This document shows, piece after piece, positions 7,040 to 39,719 of a DNA stretch of 64,000 nucleotides. The number at the start of each line of letters is the position of its first letter. Position 1 is the first letter of the stretch. This DNA comes from Stegostoma tigrinum (Eukaryota), in NCBI RefSeq assembly GCF_030684315.1, contig NC_081389.1:11821048-11885047 (forward strand), written 5' to 3'. A model generated the notes under the pieces. It had not been told where the DNA came from and searched no databases. It saw only the letters and a program-made list of their open reading frames with translations. The translations under genes were made by a program, and so were the position numbers.

Positions 7040-8115
7040 ATACCAAAAATGCAGGAGATCACCGTCGATACAGCGTGGAGCTGGTGGATCGCAGTGGCTC
7101 AGGCAGCGTCTATGGAGAGAGAGCAATCTCCCGATTCAAATCTGGATGAGACGTTTTGGACAGAAAAGTGGGAGGGGGCTGCTGCACAGAAATATTCTTC
7201 TCCCTAACTAGAAGCTACTTCCGCCACCTCCAGCAAGATGCCGCCACCAGACACACATTCCCCTCCCCTCCCTTGTCTCCCTTCCACAAGGGCAGTTTCC
7301 TCTGGGACACCCTGGTCCACACTTCCTTCATGCCCAATACCTCCCCACAGCCCTACGGCACCTTCCACTGTAACCAGCGAAGGTGCAACACCCGCCCATT
7401 TACCTCCCTCCCTCCCCAGTATCCAAGGGCCCAAACGTACCTTCCAGGTGAAGCAACACTTCACCTGCACTTCCCAGAATCTAGTCTACTGCATTCGCTG
7501 CTCACGATGTGGTCTCCTCTACATTGGGGAAACGAAGCTTAGACTTGGTGACCGCTTCGCAGAACATCTACGTTCTGCTCGCAAAGAAGACCCTGAGCTA
7601 CGCATTGGCAGCCACATCAATGCACCACCCTGCCCCCTGGCCAATATCTCTGCCTCAGGCTTGCTGCAGTGTTCCAGTGAAGCCCAATGCTATCTGGAGG
7701 AACAACACCTCATTTTCCTCTTGGGGATCATACAGCCCTCCGGACTCAATATTGAGTTCAATAATCTTAGGCCCTAAACTCCCATACCCCAGCCCCCTAC
7801 CCCACACACCAGGCCTTATTAGCGCACAGCCTGCCACTACACACCCCCTGTTGTTAGTCACTAACATTACTCATTAACAACTATTCACCCTCATAGCCTG
7901 ATCGTTAGCCACTCCTTTTGTCTGTCCAACTGCCTTTCTCTTTGGGCTCTATCCTATTGTTTACTCCCTACCCCACCCACCTCCCTATTGTCTGCATATA
8001 AGCTGACGTTTTCCCAGCCACCATCCGTTCTGAGCGACACCAGACCCAAAATGGTAACTGTTTTCTCCTTCACAGATGCTGCCAGACCTGCTGAGCTTTT
8101 CCAGCAACTTTTGTT
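7040..8115 (+). mobile_element. 5'-truncated Penelope-like element with GIY-YIG endonuclease and terminal repeat arms
   Basis: ORF 7238-7777 contains NLVYCIRCSRCGLLYIGETKLRLGDRFAEHL..LEEQHLIF..GLNIEF. An overlapping frame has YFRHLQQD..FPSPPLS. Terminal arm at 8027-8115 and an oppositely oriented arm-like segment at about 7040-7135. Confidence 0.88.
7238..7777 (+). pseudogene. Penelope GIY-YIG endonuclease domain remnant
   Basis: VYCIRC..C..LYIGET GIY-YIG motif with R..EH and the terminal GLN motif. The RT is absent or frameshifted. Confidence 0.85.
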
Positions 8116-11100
8116 TATATTCTCCCTGATTGATATTTCTGTATTCATTTAATTTGGGTAATTAAATGCACGAAAATTTGTCTGTGTATGTGCTACATGA
8201 TTGTAAAGCAGCTCTTTGATCAGAAATGTCATCTAAGGGTCAAATCTGTGAAGCTGAACGAAAAGAATGGTAAAAGAGGAGATTGGCAACTTGTCTGCCT
8301 GGTGTCAGAGATTCCTCAGTGATGCTGCTTTATATGGACTCCAGATTGTTGTTGCCATGACACTCCTTTGTACAGTGTCCAAAATGAGGTGGTTTTATCT
8401 TTGTTAGGTGTTATCTGTTTTTCAATAGGAAACACTAATGCATTTGAATCAGAAGGTTCAGACCCCTTTCTGTACAGCTCAGCACAAATAGTGAGCTGAC
8501 TCTCCCCAGTGCAATAATGAGGACCTGACGCAGTGTTGGAGGTGCTGTTGAATACAGTTGTCATACCAAGTTCCCATCATCTCTCTTGGGTCTAGTATCC
8601 CACAGCACTATTAGAATTGGTGCCAGCAGAATTCTCCTTGCTGTCCCGGTCAGTATTCACCTCTCGGTGACCATCACGGTAGCTTCGAACCTGGGCATAA
8701 TCCCAGTGTTCTCTGCAAGTAGACTGCTGCATTGGTGACATTGTAAGAGTGACTTTGGGAAGCAGTGCCCATCCTTAGATTTGCTGGTGTCAAGATTCCA
8801 GGAGGGTAGAGTGAGTTCCAAGACAATTCTTGTCTGCACAGCGCAAGCGCGACCTAATTAGTGACATTCAGATCAATGGTTTCTGGGTTCAAAGTTTGAA
8901 ACTGGATGACTTTTGAGTGCATGATCAGGCTGGCGAGTAATATGTGGGCATAATATATTGCAAGGCGTGATTAGAAAGTGGAAGCAAGATGCACCCTTGT
9001 GCCTCATGCACTGATCATTGAGTTCAAGACTCTCTTGTTTTGCCCTGTACCTGTATCCCTAGATCTCCCTCAGTTGTTCACAAATCGATTAATTGCAGAC
9101 TTGTGGCACACTCTGTCTGAGCAATTCTCTCTGGTGTAAAAGATGCCATTCAGTCTTCACCTTTTGAGTGAAGAAATTTCTCTCCATCTCAATTCTAAGT
9201 GGCCAACCTCCTCCTCCGCCTCAGCTGTCCTAAGGGACTAAGCATTTAGCTTGTTGTTGCTTTAGAGGTTTATGTATTAAACTGAGCAGTTGTACAGATA
9301 CAACTCTGGAGGGGAAGTTCTGCTAGTGTGCCTCCTGCTCTCAAAATCTCCCAACAAGTGCACATTTAGCTGATTTACTGTGTAGAGAGTGCCTGTGATG
9401 CAGAATACCTTGCAACAAAACTCTGGACTGCAAAATCTATTTGTCTCAAAAATGTAGTTTGATATTCTTATGTAATGTGAATATTTCTTTAGCTAAAATG
9501 AAAGCCGTGCTTTATTCCATGATGCTATCCCAACAAAACCGATTATTAAATTAGAGTTGAATCATTTAAATGTGTGGGCAAAAATTCATTGCTAACTTGC
9601 AGTTCTTGATGTTAACTGTTCTTTTGCACTTGCTGTTTCCTATAGCTGAGCATCAGAGCGCTCCGGCAGGTTTCGGCATACATTAGGCTGTTTAATGCCT
9701 TGTAACTCCAAGCTGAGCTGAATAAATCTGTCCTTCATGTGCAACACACCTCATTTCTGTAGTTTGAAACATGAGAGAGAATTTATCCCTGGGCAGATTC
9801 CAGCAGCTGAGTGCATACAGGCTGCTGCCTTCTAAAATGGCATTGATTGTGTCATTTTGATGCCGTTGAGCTGCTCTGCTTGTTATCTTCATAGCATCCG
9901 AAATGAATGTATGAAAGAATTGCTGTGGTCAATATCAGACAAGCTGTTTCACTGGAAATGCCATGTTAGCTTGTATTGTAATGGGGAATTGGGTTATTCA
10001 GCTTATATCAAGCCTGCATTAATGCTCTTCACCACACTCCTCCAAATTACTGAAACTATCTCAGTGAACACCATCTACTGGGGAATGGCATACACTGTTG
10101 TTAGGCCCTTCAGCCCAACCAGTCTGCACTAGCCTCTATTCTGATCCCATTTTCCAGCGTTTGGGCCATAGCCTTGTGCATTTGGTTTGTGAAAGCATAC
10201 ACCTAAATACTACTTCAATGTTATAAGGGTTTCTATCTCTACCACATCTACAGGCAGTGAGTTCTAGACTTCTAGTGCCATCTGAATGAAAAAAGCATCA
10301 ACACATCCCTCTAAACCTCTTGATCTTTGTCTCAAGCCTAGGCCCCTTTGTCATTGATCTCTTCATCAAGTTCCAGTGTCAGATTGGAATTCTGTTCCTA
10401 CTTTTTTATCACCATGGCAGAGCTGTGCATTTCTGCCTTGGTCTTCCAAGCCCGCTCCTTCAGAAAGGCAGGATGTTTTCTCGCAGTATTGATCTGGTGA
10501 GGGAGGAGGAACTACTTCTGCTAGCTGCTGATTTCTGATTTGAGTATTATTGTCACATATACTGAGATACAATGAAAATTATTGTTTGCATGCTAACCAG
10601 ATAAATCATATCTATATGTAAGGGCATCGGGGTAATAGAATGGAATGTAGACTATCGTGTTTCACCTTCAGATCAACTAATATAAGAGAGGTCTGCTCAA
10701 AAGACTGGCAACAGCAGGAAAGAAGCTGTTCCTAAATCTGCTGGTGTTTTCAAACTTTCAAACAGTAAGTGCTGAAGAACATTTAACCTACAGAAAATGT
10801 TCGAAGAGAATATAACTGGGATGAGAGGAGTCATTTTTTTTTATATTGATTTGCCTCCCTAAGGGAAGTGTAGATGGAGTCAGTGGAAGGAAGGCTGGTT
10901 AACATGATGGAACTGGGCTGTGTTCACAGCTTTCTGACTTGTGATTCTAAGTGTTTGTTCATTAATACACTGAAGCTCTGGGACAGTTTAGCAGCTTTTA
11001 ACTGTGATCAATGTTTGAGTAGGTTGATAGCTGAGGCAGGAGTCAAATTGGTCAGGAGCTTGGGCAAGTGGTTTTGGGTGGAAGGTTCTAGTCAGGTTAT

Positions 11101-28960: not shown

Positions 28961-29574
28961 GTAAGCGTGGAGTTAAGGGTTGGAGAGTTGGTGCAGACCT
29001 GATTTTGTCCAAATGGCCTCGATCTGCACTTTTGAGAATCTGATTTTATGAAAGATTGTTGTCAATTTGCGCACAGCAAGCTGCCTCAAACAGCAGTGTA
29101 ATCATGGTTGTCTTGTTGCTGGTTTTTTGGAGGATAAATATTAATCATGATAGTGAGGAGAACACTCATTCTCTTCTTCAAAATGGGATAGTTTAGAACT
29201 ATTTGATTGGCAGGACCCTAGGTCAAGATTGCACCCGAACAAAACATCTGTGAGAGTGAGGTGTCTTCACGGTGGTATTTCCTTGCTCCTGTTCAACAGC
29301 TATGCAAGTGCATACCATTAGGTTAGTCTTAGTTAGAGATCTGAAGTGTGAGCAACCGGGCTTGCACTGGAATCAATCCATCACTGTCTCAATCGCATCA
29401 ATGCAGCCAGGCGAGAAGTTCAAGGATTATTGTGCCGATACAAATTGAGCATTTTTTCAGCCCTTGAAAAAGAAGAGATTTGCTTCTTAACAAATGAGAA
29501 CACAGTTGAGACCTGTTTCTGATTTTTGTTGATGAGTGCTGCCTTTTCTGTTCCTGAAAATTATGGTTTGTGTG

Positions 29575-30860
29575 GATACAGTGTGGAGCTGGAGGAACAC
29601 AGCAGGCCAGGCAGTATTGAAGGAGCAGGAAAGTCGAAATTTTGGGTTCACACCCTTCATTGGGACTTGGGTGGGGGAAGGGAGGTCAGAAAAAGAGGTA
29701 AGAGGGAAGGGGGTGGGGCTGGGGAAGGGGGGTGGGATAGTGGAAGATGGATGCAGGTATGGGGTTGTGGAGATGGCTAATGGAAAGGATGGATCAGGTG
29801 GGCAAGAAAATGGACAGGTTGTGTTGGGCCAGGGAGGCTGGGATGAGATACAGGGTTGAACGTGAGATGAGGCCAGGAGTGGGGAGATTGGGGCGGAATA
29901 TGAGGTGTTGTTCCTCCAGCTTATGCATGGCATCATTGTCACACTGGAGGAAGCCCAAGGTGGGCATGTCGTCAAGCAAGTGGGAGGGGGAGTTAAAATG
30001 GTTGGGAACCAGAAGGTGCTGTTGCTTATAGTGTACAGAGCACAGATGCTGTGTGAAATGGCCCCCAAGTCTGTGTTTGGTCTTGTTTGATGCAGAGGAG
30101 ACCACGTCGGGAGGATTGGATACAGTAGACCAGGTTGGAGGAAGTACAGGTGAACCCCTGTTAGATGTAGAAAGATTGTTTGGGGCCTTTGATAGAGGTG
30201 AGGAGGGAGGTGTAGGGGCAGGTGTAGCACCTCCTGTGGTTGCAGCGGAAGGTGCCAGGTGTGGTGTGGTGGGGTTGGTGGGGAGCAAACGAGGGATTTG
30301 TGGAGTGCGCGGTCCCTATGGAAGGCAGATAGGGTTGGGGAGGGAAATATCTCTTTAGTTATGGGCTCAAGTTGCAGGTGGCGAAAGTGGCGGAGCATAA
30401 TGCGTTGGATGCCAAGGTTGGTGGGGTGATGTGAGGACAAGGAGGAATTCTGTGTATATTTTTGTTGGTGGGGGAGGGGGGTTTAAGGGCAGAAGTGTGA
30501 GAAACGCAAGAGATGTGGTTGAGGGCATTATGAATCATAGGAGGGGAGAAGTTACAGTCCTTGAAGTATGAGAATATCTGGCATGCCTGGAGGAGGAATA
30601 CTCCATAATCTTGGGAGTAGATGTGGCAGAGAATTGGGAGCATGGGGTCACATTCTTGCAGGAGGGTGGGTGAGAGGAGGTGTCATCTAGGTAGCTGTGG
30701 GAGTCAGACTTGAAATAGATGTCAATTTCGAGGCGGTCACCAGAGATGGAGAGGTCCAGGAAGGAGAGAGAGGTATTGGAGGTGATCCCGGTAAATTTTG
30801 AGGTGAAGGTTGAAGGTGAAAGGTGTCAGTAAAGTTGATGAACTGTTCAAGCTCCTAATG
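29575..30860 (-). mobile_element. Decayed Penelope-like element (RT C-terminal part, GIY-YIG, terminal repeat); left part of the copy interrupted by R2
   Basis: Frameshifted fragments ILRHFRHLQ..FPSP.LSAFHRDR, TKHRLGGHFTQHL and KLEEQHLIFR; terminal arm at about 29575-29660. Homologous to the element at 7.0-8.1 kb. Confidence 0.88.
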
Positions 30861-30878
30861 GGCGGGAGTAACTATGAC
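30861..30878 (+). rRNA. 18-nt fragment of 28S rRNA carried at the R2 5' end (not an rRNA gene)
   Basis: GGCGGGAGTAACTATGAC matches the conserved 28S sequence upstream of the R2 site (GGCGGGAGTAACTATGACTCTCTTAAGG/TAGCCAA). No other rDNA was seen in the window. Confidence 0.88.
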
Positions 30879-30948
30879 ATCTAGTTACAGGTCGGCCACC
30901 TCCTCGTGGTTCCCCCGGAAGCAGGCTGGGCCTGACCAAGAGCCGACC
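30861..30948 (+). ncRNA. HDV-like self-cleaving ribozyme of the R2 5' UTR
   Basis: Hand-folded. P1 GGCGGG 30861-66 / UCCCCC 30911-16 (one C-C mismatch). J1/2 hairpin GUAACUA 30868-74 / UAGUUAC 30882-88. P2 GGUCGGC 30890-96 / GCCGACC 30942-48. P3 ACC/GGU around L3 UCCUCGU 30901-07. P1.1 GG 30917-18. P4 CAGGC/GCCUG 30922-34. J4/2 ACCAAG with putative catalytic C30936. Confidence 0.9.
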
Positions 30949-31021
30949 GACCACGTCTGGGGGGGTTAGCTCCCCCCCCAAGACGTCCCGCTGCTGTGCT
31001 ACGTCACAACAAGACATAGAT

Positions 31022-34000
31022 ATGCCCGAGGCCACTGCCTCGGCACACAGCAGTCAAAGAGGGACCGCGATGTTTGTCTGCGAACATTGTGGTAAGGAGT
31101 ACAGATCTAGATCTGGACTTAGTGGACACAGAAGGATGCACTTTGCAGAGGGTGAGACCAGAGCCGTGCCGATCTGGAAGTGCGACATATGTCAAGCCGC
31201 CTTTGGTACAAAGATCGGACTTTCCCAGCATCAGCGTCGACAACATGCGGAAGTAGACAACCAGAGGAAATTAGAAGGTATGAAAGTGGTGAAGAGAAGA
31301 TGGGAGCCTTACGAGGATGAGCGTATAAGAGATTATACTGCCACCCACTGGAGGCCTGGGATGGATAAGAAGGTTGTCTACCAAGCCCTGGCTGAGCAAT
31401 TAGGACGGTCCTCAGAGGCGGTGCGCGCTAGACTGAGATCCATTGGTTGGCCGGAGGTGGGAGAACGGACCCCGATGGTGGATGTGCCTTCGGACACAAT
31501 AGAGGGACGGCAAATCTCCGTCACACCATCGGGTGAGGAATTAAAGGCAGCAGAACCCTGGGACTATGGAGTAGCCACTGTGGCGCTACAGGACCCGGAG
31601 CTTACCATTCGAGAACGGGATACGACGGAACAAGAACAACCTCTAACGGTGATGACACCTGGTGTAACCCCGGAAAGAGGAGACACTCGAGAAGCCCGCA
31701 CGGAATCTCACGAGAAACATCCTTCAGTAACGTGTGAGGGTTGGCGTAATTGCTTATTGTTAGCGGCTAGCCAACAGCTCCGAGATGCTCACATGGAGGA
31801 GTTTGGATGCCTTCTACTACGGCGATTGATCGAGCGGGTCATCCAAGGGGAGTGTTCGTTGACAGAGGCTAGAAAAATACTGGATGAACATGCCGAGGAA
31901 TATTTGCAGGCGAAATGGATTCCATCAAAGGTTCGTGTAACAGCAGAAACGACTCGAAGATTGAATGCCAAGCAGCGACGACGAAAGGAGTATGCACATG
32001 TCCAAGCTCACTGGGCAAAACGGAGGGGAGACATTGTTAAGACTATCCTCCGTGGGGAGTGGCGGGACATGGTCGCTGCTGGTAAGGGCTGGCCTGAAGG
32101 TACATTTCAGTATTGGGAGGGTCTCTTGTCACGCGAGCCCAAAAAGGATGACAGGCCGATTCGGAAAATCCTGGAAGAACGTTGGGATTTAGTCGCTCCA
32201 TGTGAGGTAGAGGATGTGAAGAAAGCCATAACGGCTTCTAAGGGTACAGCACCAGGTGTTGATAGGATATCAGCCGAGCAGATGGCAGCAGCAGACGTAA
32301 ATGTGTGGGCTGCATATTTCAACATTATTATCGCTCTGGAGTATGTCCCGAAGAGGCTTCGCGTTTCCCGGATAACATTGGTCCCGAAGTCAGAGGGAAA
32401 AATCGAACATCCCTCAAACTTGAGGCCGATAAATGTAACGTCGGTGGTGCTCCGGGTCCTTCATAAGATCCTGGCTGAGAGATGGATGAACTGTTTGAAT
32501 TTGCCATCATTTCAATTCGGTTTCTTACGAACGGACGGTACATACGAAGCTACACAGTTGGTATCGGCAATATTGCGTGAAGCCCGAGCAAGATTCGACA
32601 ATCTATCTTGTGCTTTCGTCGATCTCTCGAAAGCATTTGATCTGGTCGCCCATGATACGATTCTCAGATCGGCGGCGGGATTCGGAGCACCTCCCCCACT
32701 GGTGACTCTGTTGAAGAGTGGCCTTGAAGAGGCAGAAGCCCTTTTGGGTAGCTCTACGATAAGAGCTGGTAGAGGGGTGAGGCAAGGGGATCCGCTATCT
32801 CCGTTGCTATTCATTATGGCAATGGATGAGGTGATCGAATTGGCCGACCGCAGCATAGGTTACCAATTTGTGGGAGAGAAGGTGGATGTGGTTGCCTACG
32901 CAGACGATCTGATGGTGATGGCTGAGAACGAACAACGGTTGCGGGAAAAATTATCCAAGCTGTCAACATCTTTGGATATGGCCGGAATGACGATCAATCC
33001 GGGAAAATCAAGAACTCTCTCGATCGTTGGTTCGAAAAAGAACAAAAAGGTAGCTGTCAAAGAAATGAATATCAAGGTACAGGGTATGGACATTCCATCA
33101 ATGGGTCCAACTGACCAGATCAAATATCTTGGAATCCAGTTAAACTGGAAGGGACGAGCGCCAATACCACACAAGAAGATTCTCAGTGATATGCTTCGGG
33201 AGGTTACTCGGGCCCCCTTGAAACCACAGCAAAGGGTGGAAATCGTCCGTTCCTATTTGATACCGAAGATGAAATATACCCTTACTTTGGGTGAGGCCCA
33301 TAGGAATACCTTAAAGGCTCTAGATCGGCAAATCAGACAGTCAGTTAGAACTTGGCTTCGTCTCCCGAAGGATGCCCCCATTGGGTTTATACATTCTTCC
33401 CTAAGAGATGGGGGACTCGGGATTTCATCACTTTCATCAATAATCCCGATTGAGAAGGGGAGGCGAATGGAGCGTCTCTTGGCCAAGGACATACCCTGGA
33501 TCCGGGCGTTAGTGACACTGAGATCCTTCCAGCCAGTATGTAGAGAGATGATTAGACCGGGCAAGGTTGGAGGAGTGGAGGTTTCCACAGTAGAAGAGGT
33601 TAAAGAAGAATGGAAGAAACGTCTAGTGTCCCACGCGGATTGCAAGATCTTACAGGGTGTGAGGGTAGATCAAGTATCCCATAGATGGTTGCAGAATAAT
33701 GAGAGGATGTTCCCGAGACTCTTCATAAGAGCAACTCAATTAAGAACAGGCTCGCTTTCGACGAAAGTTCGAAGATCTCGGGGAGCTCGTGCCCAGGGTG
33801 ACTGTAAATGCCGTGGGAACTGTGGCAGTCCGGAGACTCTCCATCATATATTGCAGAGCTGTGAGATAACTCATGACGCGCGCTGTGCACGACATAATCG
33901 TGTAATGAAACAACTTGTACGTCAGATGCGGCGATTGAAGGATGTGGAGGTAATTATGGAGCCGAGAATACCATTGAGAGTCTCGTTCTGCAAACCAGAC

Positions 34001-34336
34001 ATCATTATGATGGAGGGTGAGACTGCTTATATCTGCGATGTTGCGGTGCCACTGGAATCACGACTGGAAGAGTCATGGAAGATGAAGATCGCGAAATATG
34101 GAAGTGATGAAGTTGTAACCGCAACTCTTAGATATTTGACAGCGACTGGCCACAGGATCTCAACAATCAAGCAAACTCCGGTGATAATATCATGCCGTGG
34201 ACTCATCTACGACAAAAGCGCAAACATTCTCCAGAGGCTCGGCATCTCCAAAATTTCGATCGGAGACCTGGTTACAACAACTATGGCAGGAAGTCTCAAT
34301 TGTTATGATATGTATATGCGCGGTGCATGTGGGTAG
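31022..34336 (+). CDS. R2 retrotransposon protein (2x C2H2 zinc finger, Myb, reverse transcriptase, CCHC knuckle, restriction-like endonuclease), 1104 aa
   Basis: Zinc fingers CEHC..HRRMH and CDIC..HQRRQH; Myb-like KRRWEPYEDERI. RT motifs APGVD, LRPINV, QFGF, FVDLSKAFDLVAH, GVRQGDPLSPLLF, AYADDL and KYLG. R2-typical APLKPQQR and GGLG. Knuckle CRGNCGSPETLHHILQSC, then RHN and endonuclease KPDII..CDV..K.AKY. No stops or frameshifts. Confidence 0.96.
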   Translation: MPEATASAHSSQRGTAMFVCEHCGKEYRSRSGLSGHRRMHFAEGETRAVPIWKCDICQAAFGTKIGLSQHQRRQHAEVDNQRKLEGMKVVKRRWEPYEDERIRDYTATHWRPGMDKKVVYQALAEQLGRSSEAVRARLRSIGWPEVGERTPMVDVPSDTIEGRQISVTPSGEELKAAEPWDYGVATVALQDPELTIRERDTTEQEQPLTVMTPGVTPERGDTREARTESHEKHPSVTCEGWRNCLLLAASQQLRDAHMEEFGCLLLRRLIERVIQGECSLTEARKILDEHAEEYLQAKWIPSKVRVTAETTRRLNAKQRRRKEYAHVQAHWAKRRGDIVKTILRGEWRDMVAAGKGWPEGTFQYWEGLLSREPKKDDRPIRKILEERWDLVAPCEVEDVKKAITASKGTAPGVDRISAEQMAAADVNVWAAYFNIIIALEYVPKRLRVSRITLVPKSEGKIEHPSNLRPINVTSVVLRVLHKILAERWMNCLNLPSFQFGFLRTDGTYEATQLVSAILREARARFDNLSCAFVDLSKAFDLVAHDTILRSAAGFGAPPPLVTLLKSGLEEAEALLGSSTIRAGRGVRQGDPLSPLLFIMAMDEVIELADRSIGYQFVGEKVDVVAYADDLMVMAENEQRLREKLSKLSTSLDMAGMTINPGKSRTLSIVGSKKNKKVAVKEMNIKVQGMDIPSMGPTDQIKYLGIQLNWKGRAPIPHKKILSDMLREVTRAPLKPQQRVEIVRSYLIPKMKYTLTLGEAHRNTLKALDRQIRQSVRTWLRLPKDAPIGFIHSSLRDGGLGISSLSSIIPIEKGRRMERLLAKDIPWIRALVTLRSFQPVCREMIRPGKVGGVEVSTVEEVKEEWKKRLVSHADCKILQGVRVDQVSHRWLQNNERMFPRLFIRATQLRTGSLSTKVRRSRGARAQGDCKCRGNCGSPETLHHILQSCEITHDARCARHNRVMKQLVRQMRRLKDVEVIMEPRIPLRVSFCKPDIIMMEGETAYICDVAVPLESRLEESWKMKIAKYGSDEVVTATLRYLTATGHRISTIKQTPVIISCRGLIYDKSANILQRLGISKISIGDLVTTTMAGSLNCYDMYMRGACG

Positions 34337-34504
34337 AATAATGTTCAATAAAAGTCCCGAAATGATCTGTGCCCCTTATATTTCGCAGAAAACACTTATG
34401 ATGAGCTAATCGCCTGACCTCGCGTCCCTCGGCGACAATAGCACTTTAGTGCAGTTTTTAGGGATTGGGTACCACCACTGTGTGTCCCAACCAAATACAT
34501 GTTA

Positions 34505-34551
34505 TAGCACTGGTCAACGTAGTGAAAGAAGAAGTGAGGGATGGTGCCAGT
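34505..34551 (-). mobile_element. Continuation of the Penelope RT (YIDD-motif region) on the other side of the R2 insertion
   Basis: The - strand reads GTIPHFFFHYVD, resembling the Penelope RT segment P.LFLRYIDD that normally precedes EEL/VEQFINF, which is seen at about 30830-30860. Confidence 0.7.
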
Positions 34552-36450: not shown

Positions 36451-36583
36451 TTTAAAAAAAAATCTAAATGGGGCTCTTAAAAATCAATATCTCTCTTCTT
36501 CCCTTTCTCCCACTAATCCTTTAAATGTGTGTGCATGCAAAGTCTGACAGAATTCTCATTTTGTTTTTTTTTTACATTCCCAG

Positions 36584-36925
36584 GGGTCTTCAAGATCCAA
36601 GTACCAGAAGTTCCTGTCGTTGCCATCTTTGGGAAAGATATCACCCTGAACTGCTCCTTCATCACCAATGCCACCTTTTCCTTGGGCGACCTCACTGTCA
36701 TTTGGCAGCTTACAGAGACTCGGAAGATGGTGCGCAACTACCCGATCCAGCAGGACCAGCTGGCAGACAGCTTTGCGAACAGGACAGCTCTGTTCACTGA
36801 AGAGCTGGAAAAGGGGAATGCTTCTTTGCTGTTGAGGCATGTCCGGATTGAGGACGAGGGCAGCTTCACCTGCTTTGTGAGAATTAAAAGTCACCAGAGT
36901 GCTTCCATCATGCTCCGACTGGCTG
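36584..36925 (+). CDS. CD276: CD276 (B7-H3) IgV-domain exon
   Basis: Polypyrimidine tract and AG at 36582-83, GT donor at 36926, phase 1/1. Translation VFKIQVPEVPVVA..LNCSF..IWQLTET..FANRTALF..GNASLLL..VRIEDEGSFTCFV closely parallels the mammalian B7-H3 IgV as I recall it. Confidence 0.93.
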
Positions 36926-36989
36926 GTATGAGGACGTGAGATTGTGCCCAGAGCAGTGGCTCCCAGTCTTATATTACTTACACTGAAGC

Positions 36990-38642: not shown

Positions 38643-38894
38643 CAGTGTTCAACAGTGCCAGATTTTGAAATGTGGAATTCTTGTTTTTGTTTTGTTAAGT
38701 GAAACGTCAAAGTTAGCAAAACCGAGATCGAAATGGTATGAAAATTACATAGTGATCTTTGGGCTTGTCAGGACTTGGGAAAGCTAACTGACCAAATGGC
38801 TGCAGAGATATTGACGAAGTTGTAATGTTCTTTTGGAGTGAAACACGTTGATTGGTTGAGAGTATTTGCTTTAGTTGTACTTCTGTCATTTCAG

Positions 38895-39191
38895 CTTCTT
38901 ACTCCAAACCCAACTTGCATTTGGAACCTAACAAGAATCTCAAGCCTGGCGATGAGGTGGCCATTACTTGCCACTCTTCTGGAGGTTACCCCCAAGCCAC
39001 AGTGCAGTGGCATGATGGGAAAGGGAGCAACATCACTGAGAATGTCACCACTTCGCAGGTGGCCAATGAGCAGGGTCTGTTTGACGTCCGCAGTGTGATC
39101 AGGGTGATACTGGAGCCCAACAGCACGTACAGTTGCATGGTGAGGAATGAGCTGCTGAATGAGGAGACCCAAGCCTTGGCAACCATTACAG
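38895..39191 (+). CDS. CD276: CD276 (B7-H3) IgC-domain exon
   Basis: TTTCAG acceptor ending at 38894, GTCAGT donor at 39192, phase 1/1, in frame with the IgV exon. YSKP..LEPNKNLKPGD.V.ITC.S.GGYP..NVTTSQVANEQGLFDV.S..TYSCMVRN..TITG is diagnostic of B7-H3. Confidence 0.95.
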
Positions 39192-39719
39192 GTCAGTCGC
39201 ACATTGTTGTTACCGACTTGCCGATGTGAGGCCTGCAAAATAGAATAGAGCATTGTAACAGCACAATTTGCACAGCGTTCATTCCAATTACTGTGAACTG
39301 CCTCAAAGGACTTCTGAAGTGTCTGAAACATCTGTTCATTCATTCTGCTCTGCAGTGAACCAGCTGAAAATCACTCCACATCACAATAGGATATCGGGAA
39401 AACATGTTTAGAAATTTTGATGGGCAATTTTCTTTTCTTTTTAGCGGGGGGAGTGGGGGAACATACACTGTTTCCAATTTTGTAGCCATTTAAGCCCATT
39501 ACGAACATGGAAAGTGATGACACTGTGACAGAAGCCTTGCAGTACCTGGGTGAGTGAGATTAACTAATATTATCTCTTCAAATCACACCTGTTTTTCATT
39601 GACAGCTGGTTACAGTTTTGTTTAACTTCTGTGAAGGCTAATCTGTTGGATCTCCTATAATGGAGCTGGAGCAATTTACTGTAGATGGGGTTAATAAGGA
39701 GGAGCTGTCTGACTGGCAA

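Follow-up and report, generated by a model that had tools for sequence, protein, structure and literature searches.

The window, the whole 64-kb stretch of DNA analyzed here, carries a full-length R2 element outside the ribosomal DNA (rDNA), and we hold with high confidence that this is a very recent, polymorphic insertion, likely generated by ordinary TPRT at a chance AGG/TAGC (the slash marks the point of insertion) in one decayed Penelope-like copy. The element belongs to R2-2_STig, a family that inserts at the conserved 28S site, as evidenced by four copies on rDNA contigs with 99% identity that continue with TAGCCAAATGCC. The window copy itself, flanked by a Penelope-like relic and an intron of CD276, lies outside 28S rDNA and represents an off-target insertion by a site-specific family. 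An assignment to the non-specific R2NS type was rejected in view of the rDNA copies and of the TAG found at 35 of 39 off-rDNA junctions.

Table 1. Features of the window.
Feature	Position	Strand	Remarks
Second Penelope-like copy	7214..8488	-	at 7847 decayed, empty version of the 3' UTR site hit by lineage A
Decayed Penelope-like element, 3' part of RT and downstream sequence, left of insertion	29130..30860	-	profile match
R2 retrotransposon, full-length, 3644 nt, family R2-2_STig, clade C (lineage D)	30861..34504	+	intact, open frame
28S-derived leader carried by R2 RNA (rDNA target -28 to -11), 18 nt	30861..30878	+	same sequence as upstream 28S at rDNA loci
HDV-like ribozyme fold (P2, P3, L3, P4, J4/2 with C), predicted	30861..30948	+	pattern and fold z -2.98
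Open frame, 1152 aa stop to stop, first Met 31022	30878..34336	+	two CCHH fingers, Myb-like region, RT (YADD), CCHC knuckle, PD-(D/E)xK nuclease
R2 3' UTR, 168 nt, no poly(A)	34337..34504	+
TAGC, right half of target	34505..34508	+	present in empty allele
Remnant of the same Penelope-like RT (YIDD-like motif), right of insertion, older 8-nt deletion	34505..34551	-
CD276 (B7-H3) IgV exon	36583..36927	+	91% to bamboo-shark CD276
CD276 IgC exon	38888..39196	+

The best PDB matches of the open frame are R2 proteins (8gh6, E 4e-100; 9nl3/9dou), and this single frame combines an RT with a restriction-like endonuclease homologous to R2. Two CCHH fingers are visible in the sequence, the first of which was found by Pfam, and together with the clade C listing they place the element in clade C (lineage D); the Myb-like region gave only a weak Pfam match (E 0.095), below the cut-off. 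By eye, the N-terminal ~400 residues of P0001 agree with R2-2_STig in the accessible part of PMC13188248 (Table S2/S7) at all but one residue. Over 3644 positions the window copy differs from the rDNA copies L124 and L123 by 21 and 23 changes, respectively, and both of its ends are the same as in the rDNA copies.

With respect to CD276 the element is sense-oriented and is located ~2 kb before the IgV exon. The leader exon of the gene was not found inside the 64-kb window; a leader-exon pattern has a same-strand match 27 kb upstream of it, one of 11 matches genome-wide. The repeat on the left of the insertion is presumably Penelope-like, a name that we base on motifs in its translation, and we likewise take the RT and GIY-YIG motifs in the Penelope-like translations to be of the PLE type. 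A Pfam search with two decayed Penelope-like frames returned no match. Genome-wide, ~3975 Penelope-like candidates were found, the best of which are 81-85% identical to the left-hand repeat.

Junctions, empty allele and 5' end of the window copy

The 3' UTR ends with ACATGTTA at 34504 and is followed by TAGC and then by minus-strand Penelope-like RT sequence, as had been described in the initial annotation. As the four rDNA-contig copies end on the same base before continuing into 28S, 34504 is the true 3' end, correctly placed from the outset, and the TAGC is the 28S-equivalent flank. At the two junctions we found neither poly(A) nor a TSD, a duplication that was considered and rejected, and the left flank ends TAATG at 30860, again in line with the earlier description (no poly(A), no TSD, AATG on the left). 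The R2 sequence starts directly after this flank with the 28S-derived GGCGGGAG.

That description had also predicted a pre-insertion site resembling AGG/TAGC, and exactly this site was recovered from public contigs. In a contig of run X5, the right flank was matched without difference and continued for 29 letters past 34505; these letters comprise the left flank of the R2 copy, including its private TAATG, and 11 more bases that end in GAGG. In run X3, from the same sample, a contig extends past 34505 by 35 letters, an extension recorded by its length. Run X2 stems from another sample, from which the assembly may derive. Here the flank unitig is interrupted at exactly 34505 (depth 21.8), and R2 and flank are joined by a contig of 55 nt (25 + 30 nt) at a depth of 9.2 versus 21.8, as expected of a heterozygote. 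Note that the loose end in X5 (29 nt) and the junction contig in X2 (25 + 30 nt) are shorter than the 31 letters that the bridging rule of the tool demands. The insertion is polymorphic, with an empty allele GAGG/TAGC in public contigs. Sample S3 likely is without the insertion, short of proof since contigs show presence and not absence. No reads across the site came from run X1 (share 0.06) or from the bisulfite run X6, and joints near 30856-34528 in a first read placement derive from Penelope paralogs and were discarded as evidence.

As TAGC stands in the empty allele, it is target and not R2 RNA in the window copy, and an origin as an RNA tail is ruled out. The insertion removed 11 target bases, or nine if the shared GG is assigned to the target, and the 5' joint shows this GG as a 2-nt microhomology. 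From the short spacing between two Penelope RT motifs, where ~19 nt are absent, a small target deletion had been deduced beforehand, and this is correct for the 11 bases lost with R2 but not for the other eight, which are missing to the right of TAGCACTG and are also absent from the empty allele, so that they represent an older deletion in this Penelope copy. Between -40 and +20, the empty site agrees with 28S at 26 of the 60 positions (12/29 from -40 to -12, 5/11 from -11 to -1 by hand count, and 9/20 downstream). The sole contiguous match is the 7-nt core AGG/TAGC, and the likeness to the upstream 28S word GTAACTA, discussed below, is poor (4/7).

The 28S-derived leader is not peculiar to the window copy; most full-length copies outside rDNA also begin with it. 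The HDV-like pattern of which it forms part is present in 13 of 31 5' ends, while the others are decayed or come from older subfamilies in which a P2 pair is compensated, and P1 of the predicted ribozyme contains a C-C mismatch in the young subfamily. Rfam gave no match in the window at the gathering score and none at the R2 5' end. Cleavage at -28 is that of a published class of R2 ribozymes (PMC11331408). A G7/C8 hairpin, with weak Rfam matches only, lies right 3' of the predicted ribozyme (30953-30990) and is kept in the young copies. An isolated 226-nt R2 5' piece with the ribozyme, 100% identical to the window copy, is found beside a Penelope-type repeat in L179 (2146-2371).

We propose that a C>T change likely made AGG/TAGC in one decayed Penelope-like copy, and that RNA of an rDNA-resident master was likely freed at 28S position -28 by the HDV-like ribozyme; leader and fold are observed features of the copy, to which the cleavage would be added. 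The protein likely nicks and primes where TAG(C) stands just downstream, with a weak preference for GTAACTA ~21 nt upstream, and the need for TAGC may be set by the protein or by pairing of RNA and primer. The 5' end was joined through the GG microhomology with the loss of 11 target bases, as is seen from the empty allele.

Stray copies of two R2 lineages

DNA and protein searches for clade-C copies yielded 63 fetched loci in addition to the window, from which two without R2 homology were dropped (L176 and L177, pattern-only matches likely due to chance). A further pattern for older 3' ends gave 77 matches versus 65 in the control, not above control, and was left unused. Among the 49 3' ends located, four lie on rDNA contigs, four adjoin chromosomal 28S pieces and 41 are off-rDNA. 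L152 and L171 have no clean 3' end and were left out. In the 39 clean off-rDNA junctions TAG follows in 35 and TAGC in 29, at backgrounds in flanking DNA of 0.014 and 0.0028, respectively. Two of these junctions (L147 and L169) were shifted one base by hand. Some of the TAGC may be RNA-templated, as the paralogs of L167 read TAAC where its junction reads TAGC; an empty allele was observed at the window site only, and the other sites were deduced from flanks or paralogs.

For the upstream side, all 28S 7-mers from -34 to -7 were slid over the last 30 nt of the left flanks of 36 of the 39 copies, with the exception of L144, L155 and L163, where an inversion or interruption hides the target. The peak was GTAACTA (-21 to -15), found with at least six of seven matches in 7/36 flanks versus 2.4% (p 1e-6), and its enrichment persisted in the 21 5'-truncated copies without the 28S leader (p 8e-4). 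The strays range from 62 to 99% identity across successive subfamilies and many are full length. Copy counts are lower bounds, and since rDNA is moreover collapsed in assemblies, a ratio of on-target to off-target insertion is not derivable from them.

Several loci stand apart in their structure. Two older clade-C strays outside rDNA, L128 (2117-5746) and L131 (2104-5743), still have open frames over their full length; their identity to the window copy is 96% and 88%, respectively. In L151, L155 and L163, also of clade C, the 5' part is inverted, resembling twin-primed LINE insertions. R2 copies joined to 28S pieces of 29 nt to 2 kb were found on ordinary chromosomes (L127, L133, L160, L168, L175, L183, L189, L191 and L316-L322), and these are probably orphan rDNA, or else co-transcripts of rRNA and R2 that were retroposed or displaced.

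The same genome houses a second R2 of lineage A, with three fingers, that by eye matches R2-1_STig in the accessible sequence data. A pattern census of its complete 3' ends gave 76, of which 14 are on rDNA contigs and 62 are chromosomal. The latter run into 28S (12), into one RT position of a CR1-type LINE (16), into a position in a Penelope 3' UTR (3), into a Penelope terminal repeat (2) or elsewhere (29). The host LINE (RVT_1, E 3.5e-21) is presumably CR1-type, a label that we base on its motifs. A pattern for the joint of lineage A with this LINE was found at 20 loci and in none of the controls, and with two pattern variants 21 of 22 fetched TAGACC junctions were at one CR1 position, with collinear CR1 sequence on both sides. 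The 21 insertions each have their own 5' joint, with inserts of 0.3-5.7 kb and hosts that are 85-97% alike, and monophyly of 14 long copies at the site is rejected (p-AU 1e-132). The differing joints and the polyphyly rule out a single amplified CR1::R2 chimera, and this one nucleotide of the LINE has received at least 21 independent insertions of lineage-A R2 (e.g. L283-L290, L323-L336). One further candidate insertion at this site appeared in the census at C12:91310327. The empty CR1 site exists in 4,333 exact copies versus 143 empty 28S sites in the assembly, in which rDNA is collapsed, and it matches 28S at 15/25 positions with a one-base shift. No exact clade-C end was found at this site, and its use by clade C was rejected.

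The Penelope 3' UTR site (L338-L347) holds four lineage-A insertions, with both joints seen for two of them, and has 167 exact empty copies; it matches 28S at 13/25 positions in register, plus TAG. The initial annotation had suspected that 28S mimics in other retroelements serve as repeated landing sites, and this is the case for lineage A in the CR1-type LINE and the Penelope 3' UTR, but not for clade C at the window site.

Upstream of the lineage-A insertions the word GGGAGTA (-25 to -19) was found in 10 of 26 non-CR1 flanks versus 3% (p 1e-7), and downstream the same flanks show T in 24, A in 21, G in 14 and C in 11, with only TA strong. These 26 flanks exclude 28S-tailed and 3'-truncated copies and one rearranged copy. 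Judged from the flanking words, the two lineages prefer different parts of the 28S target, TAGC with GTAACTA in one case and GGGAGTA with TA in the other. This difference agrees with the binding data available in PMC11204384, according to which A-clade N-termini bind upstream only and those of the D-clade on both sides. For lineage A, GGGAGTA ~25 nt upstream and only TA downstream would lead to repeated insertion at fixed, 28S-like positions in the CR1-type LINE and the Penelope 3' UTR.

Two insertions of lineage A, L305 and L310, are at or near one position in the endonuclease region of another LINE, a possible further hot spot. In L212, L214, L232, L238, L263, L278 and L280, lineage-A 3' ends are fused directly to a hammerhead-like Penelope terminal repeat, in some cases with 20-29 nt of 28S, and these fusions may be template switches by the RT of another element.

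Ancestry and alternative readings of the window copy

In a tree of 33 copies, the clade-C sequences form a ladder that ends in the rDNA copies, and the window copy adjoins these. Changes shared among 16 long copies have a dN/dS of 0.15 versus 0.58 for private ones. The window copy shows no private change in the RT-nuclease part, its nearest rows being rDNA copies, and the current subfamily comprises four rDNA copies versus one complete off-rDNA copy. This pattern fits an rDNA master lineage that has leaked ~40 dead-on-arrival copies through successive subfamilies.

A far bolder reading would give shark R2 two niches, rDNA masters on the one hand and thousands of 28S mimics in other retroelements on the other, with intact strays that are cut by their ribozyme from host pre-mRNA and act as polymerase-II-driven sources, reseeding rDNA after purging. 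We consider it improbable; if true, it would explain the long persistence of R2, and the window allele would be a self-cleaving knock-down of CD276.

A somewhat less likely possibility is that the off-rDNA copies, including the one in the window, are active sources and that the family is now a generalist independent of rDNA. Roughly ten times more off-rDNA than rDNA copies were assembled, full frames are kept in the window copy as well as in L128 and L131, and the window copy has the whole predicted ribozyme and is sense-oriented in an intron. However, the ladder-like tree with its short tips, private changes that are near neutral, and the composition of the current subfamily all speak against this.

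The copy might also have been made by repair, or by the machinery of another element, from R2 RNA or cDNA at an existing break, with TAGC resulting only from pairing of a 28S tail. This we regard as very unlikely. In lineage A, 3'-truncated copies with a fusion to Penelope or CR1 sequence occur, as do copies with 13 to >60 nt of downstream 28S, resembling the capture of an rRNA-R2 co-transcript, and the upstream match at the window site is weak. Insertion by the R2 nuclease is nevertheless favored by the precise R2 3' end at the 28S-equivalent base, the lack of a TSD and the upstream deletion; the AGG at -3 to -1 is a further match, and the upstream motifs follow the two R2 proteins rather than host elements.

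The initial annotation had suggested that the Penelope RT position is a 28S mimic, so that the abundant Penelope copies could serve R2 as a TE-in-TE safe harbour; for the window site this reading fails. TAGC is present at this position in none of the 29 best Penelope paralogs, where the family reads GAGG/CAGC, and exact patterns gave 632 CAGC versus 23 TAGC genome-wide, with no matches in the controls, a share that is compatible with neutral decay. A paralog profile run over all R2 flanks placed the window alone at this position, and a genome-wide pattern combining the 3' end of the lineage with this flank (C or T allowed) had one match, the window itself. Further insertions of this lineage at the position, for which a search had been proposed as a check, were thus not found in the genome. 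The clade-C strays are flanked either by unique DNA without mutual relationship or by various repeats, each hit at a different place, an outcome that had been named in advance as refuting the idea. That this position is a family-wide mimic offering clade-C R2 many secondary landing sites is therefore highly improbable, for although the empty site reads AGG/TAGC, Penelope candidates are abundant, 23 of the empty copies do have TAGC, and a second clade-C copy (L145) sits in a Penelope element, the family letter is C, L145 lies at another position and in the other orientation, and the upstream likeness to 28S is weak. The Penelope host of the window copy is incidental, and the flagged RT site is a one-off.

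Relation to known R2 systems

The co-existence of R2-2_STig (clade C) and R2-1_STig (clade A) in one shark was reported by Hassan et al. 2026 (PMC13188248). Their elements were collected by flanking 28S, and nothing on off-rDNA copies, target motifs or hot spots is found in the accessible part of the paper; the terms 'off-target' and 'CR1' have no occurrence in its main text. Our literature search, with most subscription papers outside its scope, found no report of off-rDNA R2 in sharks or of R2 hot spots in CR1.

Strays as such have precedents. Stage and Eickbush 2009 (PMC2718515) described stray R2 copies in five Drosophila species and concluded that these do not act as sources, and the same work lists 118 R1 insertions outside 28S, often in repeats, with 28S-like bases and an upstream 28S leader. 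As far as described in the text available, the Drosophila R2 strays are frequently incomplete, whereas many of those in the shark are full length, with 62-99% identity, and one is intact and polymorphic. Unlike the Drosophila strays, shark lineage A moreover hits single nucleotides of other retroelements more than 20 times. With avian R2 proteins in PRINT, off-target sites share mainly the primer-complementary bases after the nick (Zhang et al., PMC11371274). According to the portion of that paper at hand, these events are engineered, somatic, restricted to the A-clade and amount to 0.1-1% of all events, whereas in the shark two lineages, each with its own upstream motif, have inserted naturally in the germline. 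R2NS-1_SMed and R2NS-1_CSi, one of which belongs to clade C, are non-specific R2 families outside 28S (Kojima et al. 2016, PMC5035012); in contrast to these families, described there as having lost specificity, R2-2_STig keeps its exact 28S insertion and the requirement for TAG(C). Off-rDNA R2 in Drosophila, TAGC-only off-targets in engineered cells, non-specific R2 and both shark families were thus already known, and what is new here is a clade-C stray that is both intact and polymorphic and whose empty allele is known, together with the comparison of two lineages in one genome.

A 2026 review considers the division into site-specific elements and others oversimplified and, in the part available, calls the durability of R2 unexplained (PMC13580325). 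R2 proteins are under development for rDNA-targeted gene insertion, and the genome studied here records more than 100 natural germline off-target events of two R2 lineages side by side, with lineage-specific motifs that are testable. Since the window copy is intact and near-identical to the rDNA copies, and its empty allele is known, the substrate, the enzyme and the two genotypes are all available. As abundant positions in LINE and Penelope elements can serve as decoys, repeat families appear worth screening as a class of off-targets in engineered use.

Short, internally deleted R2 derivatives, the R2 SIDEs, have been described in Drosophila (PMC3414825). In the shark, L283, L323, L324, L325, L327, L335 and L340 are internally deleted lineage-A derivatives of ~0.8-0.9 kb, several with a common, distinct 5' segment. 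These copies of ~0.85 kb resemble the R2 SIDEs as far as the latter are covered in the accessible text, but lie outside rDNA at CR1 and Penelope sites, and their structure suggests a SIDE-like, non-autonomous family that has spread outside rDNA.
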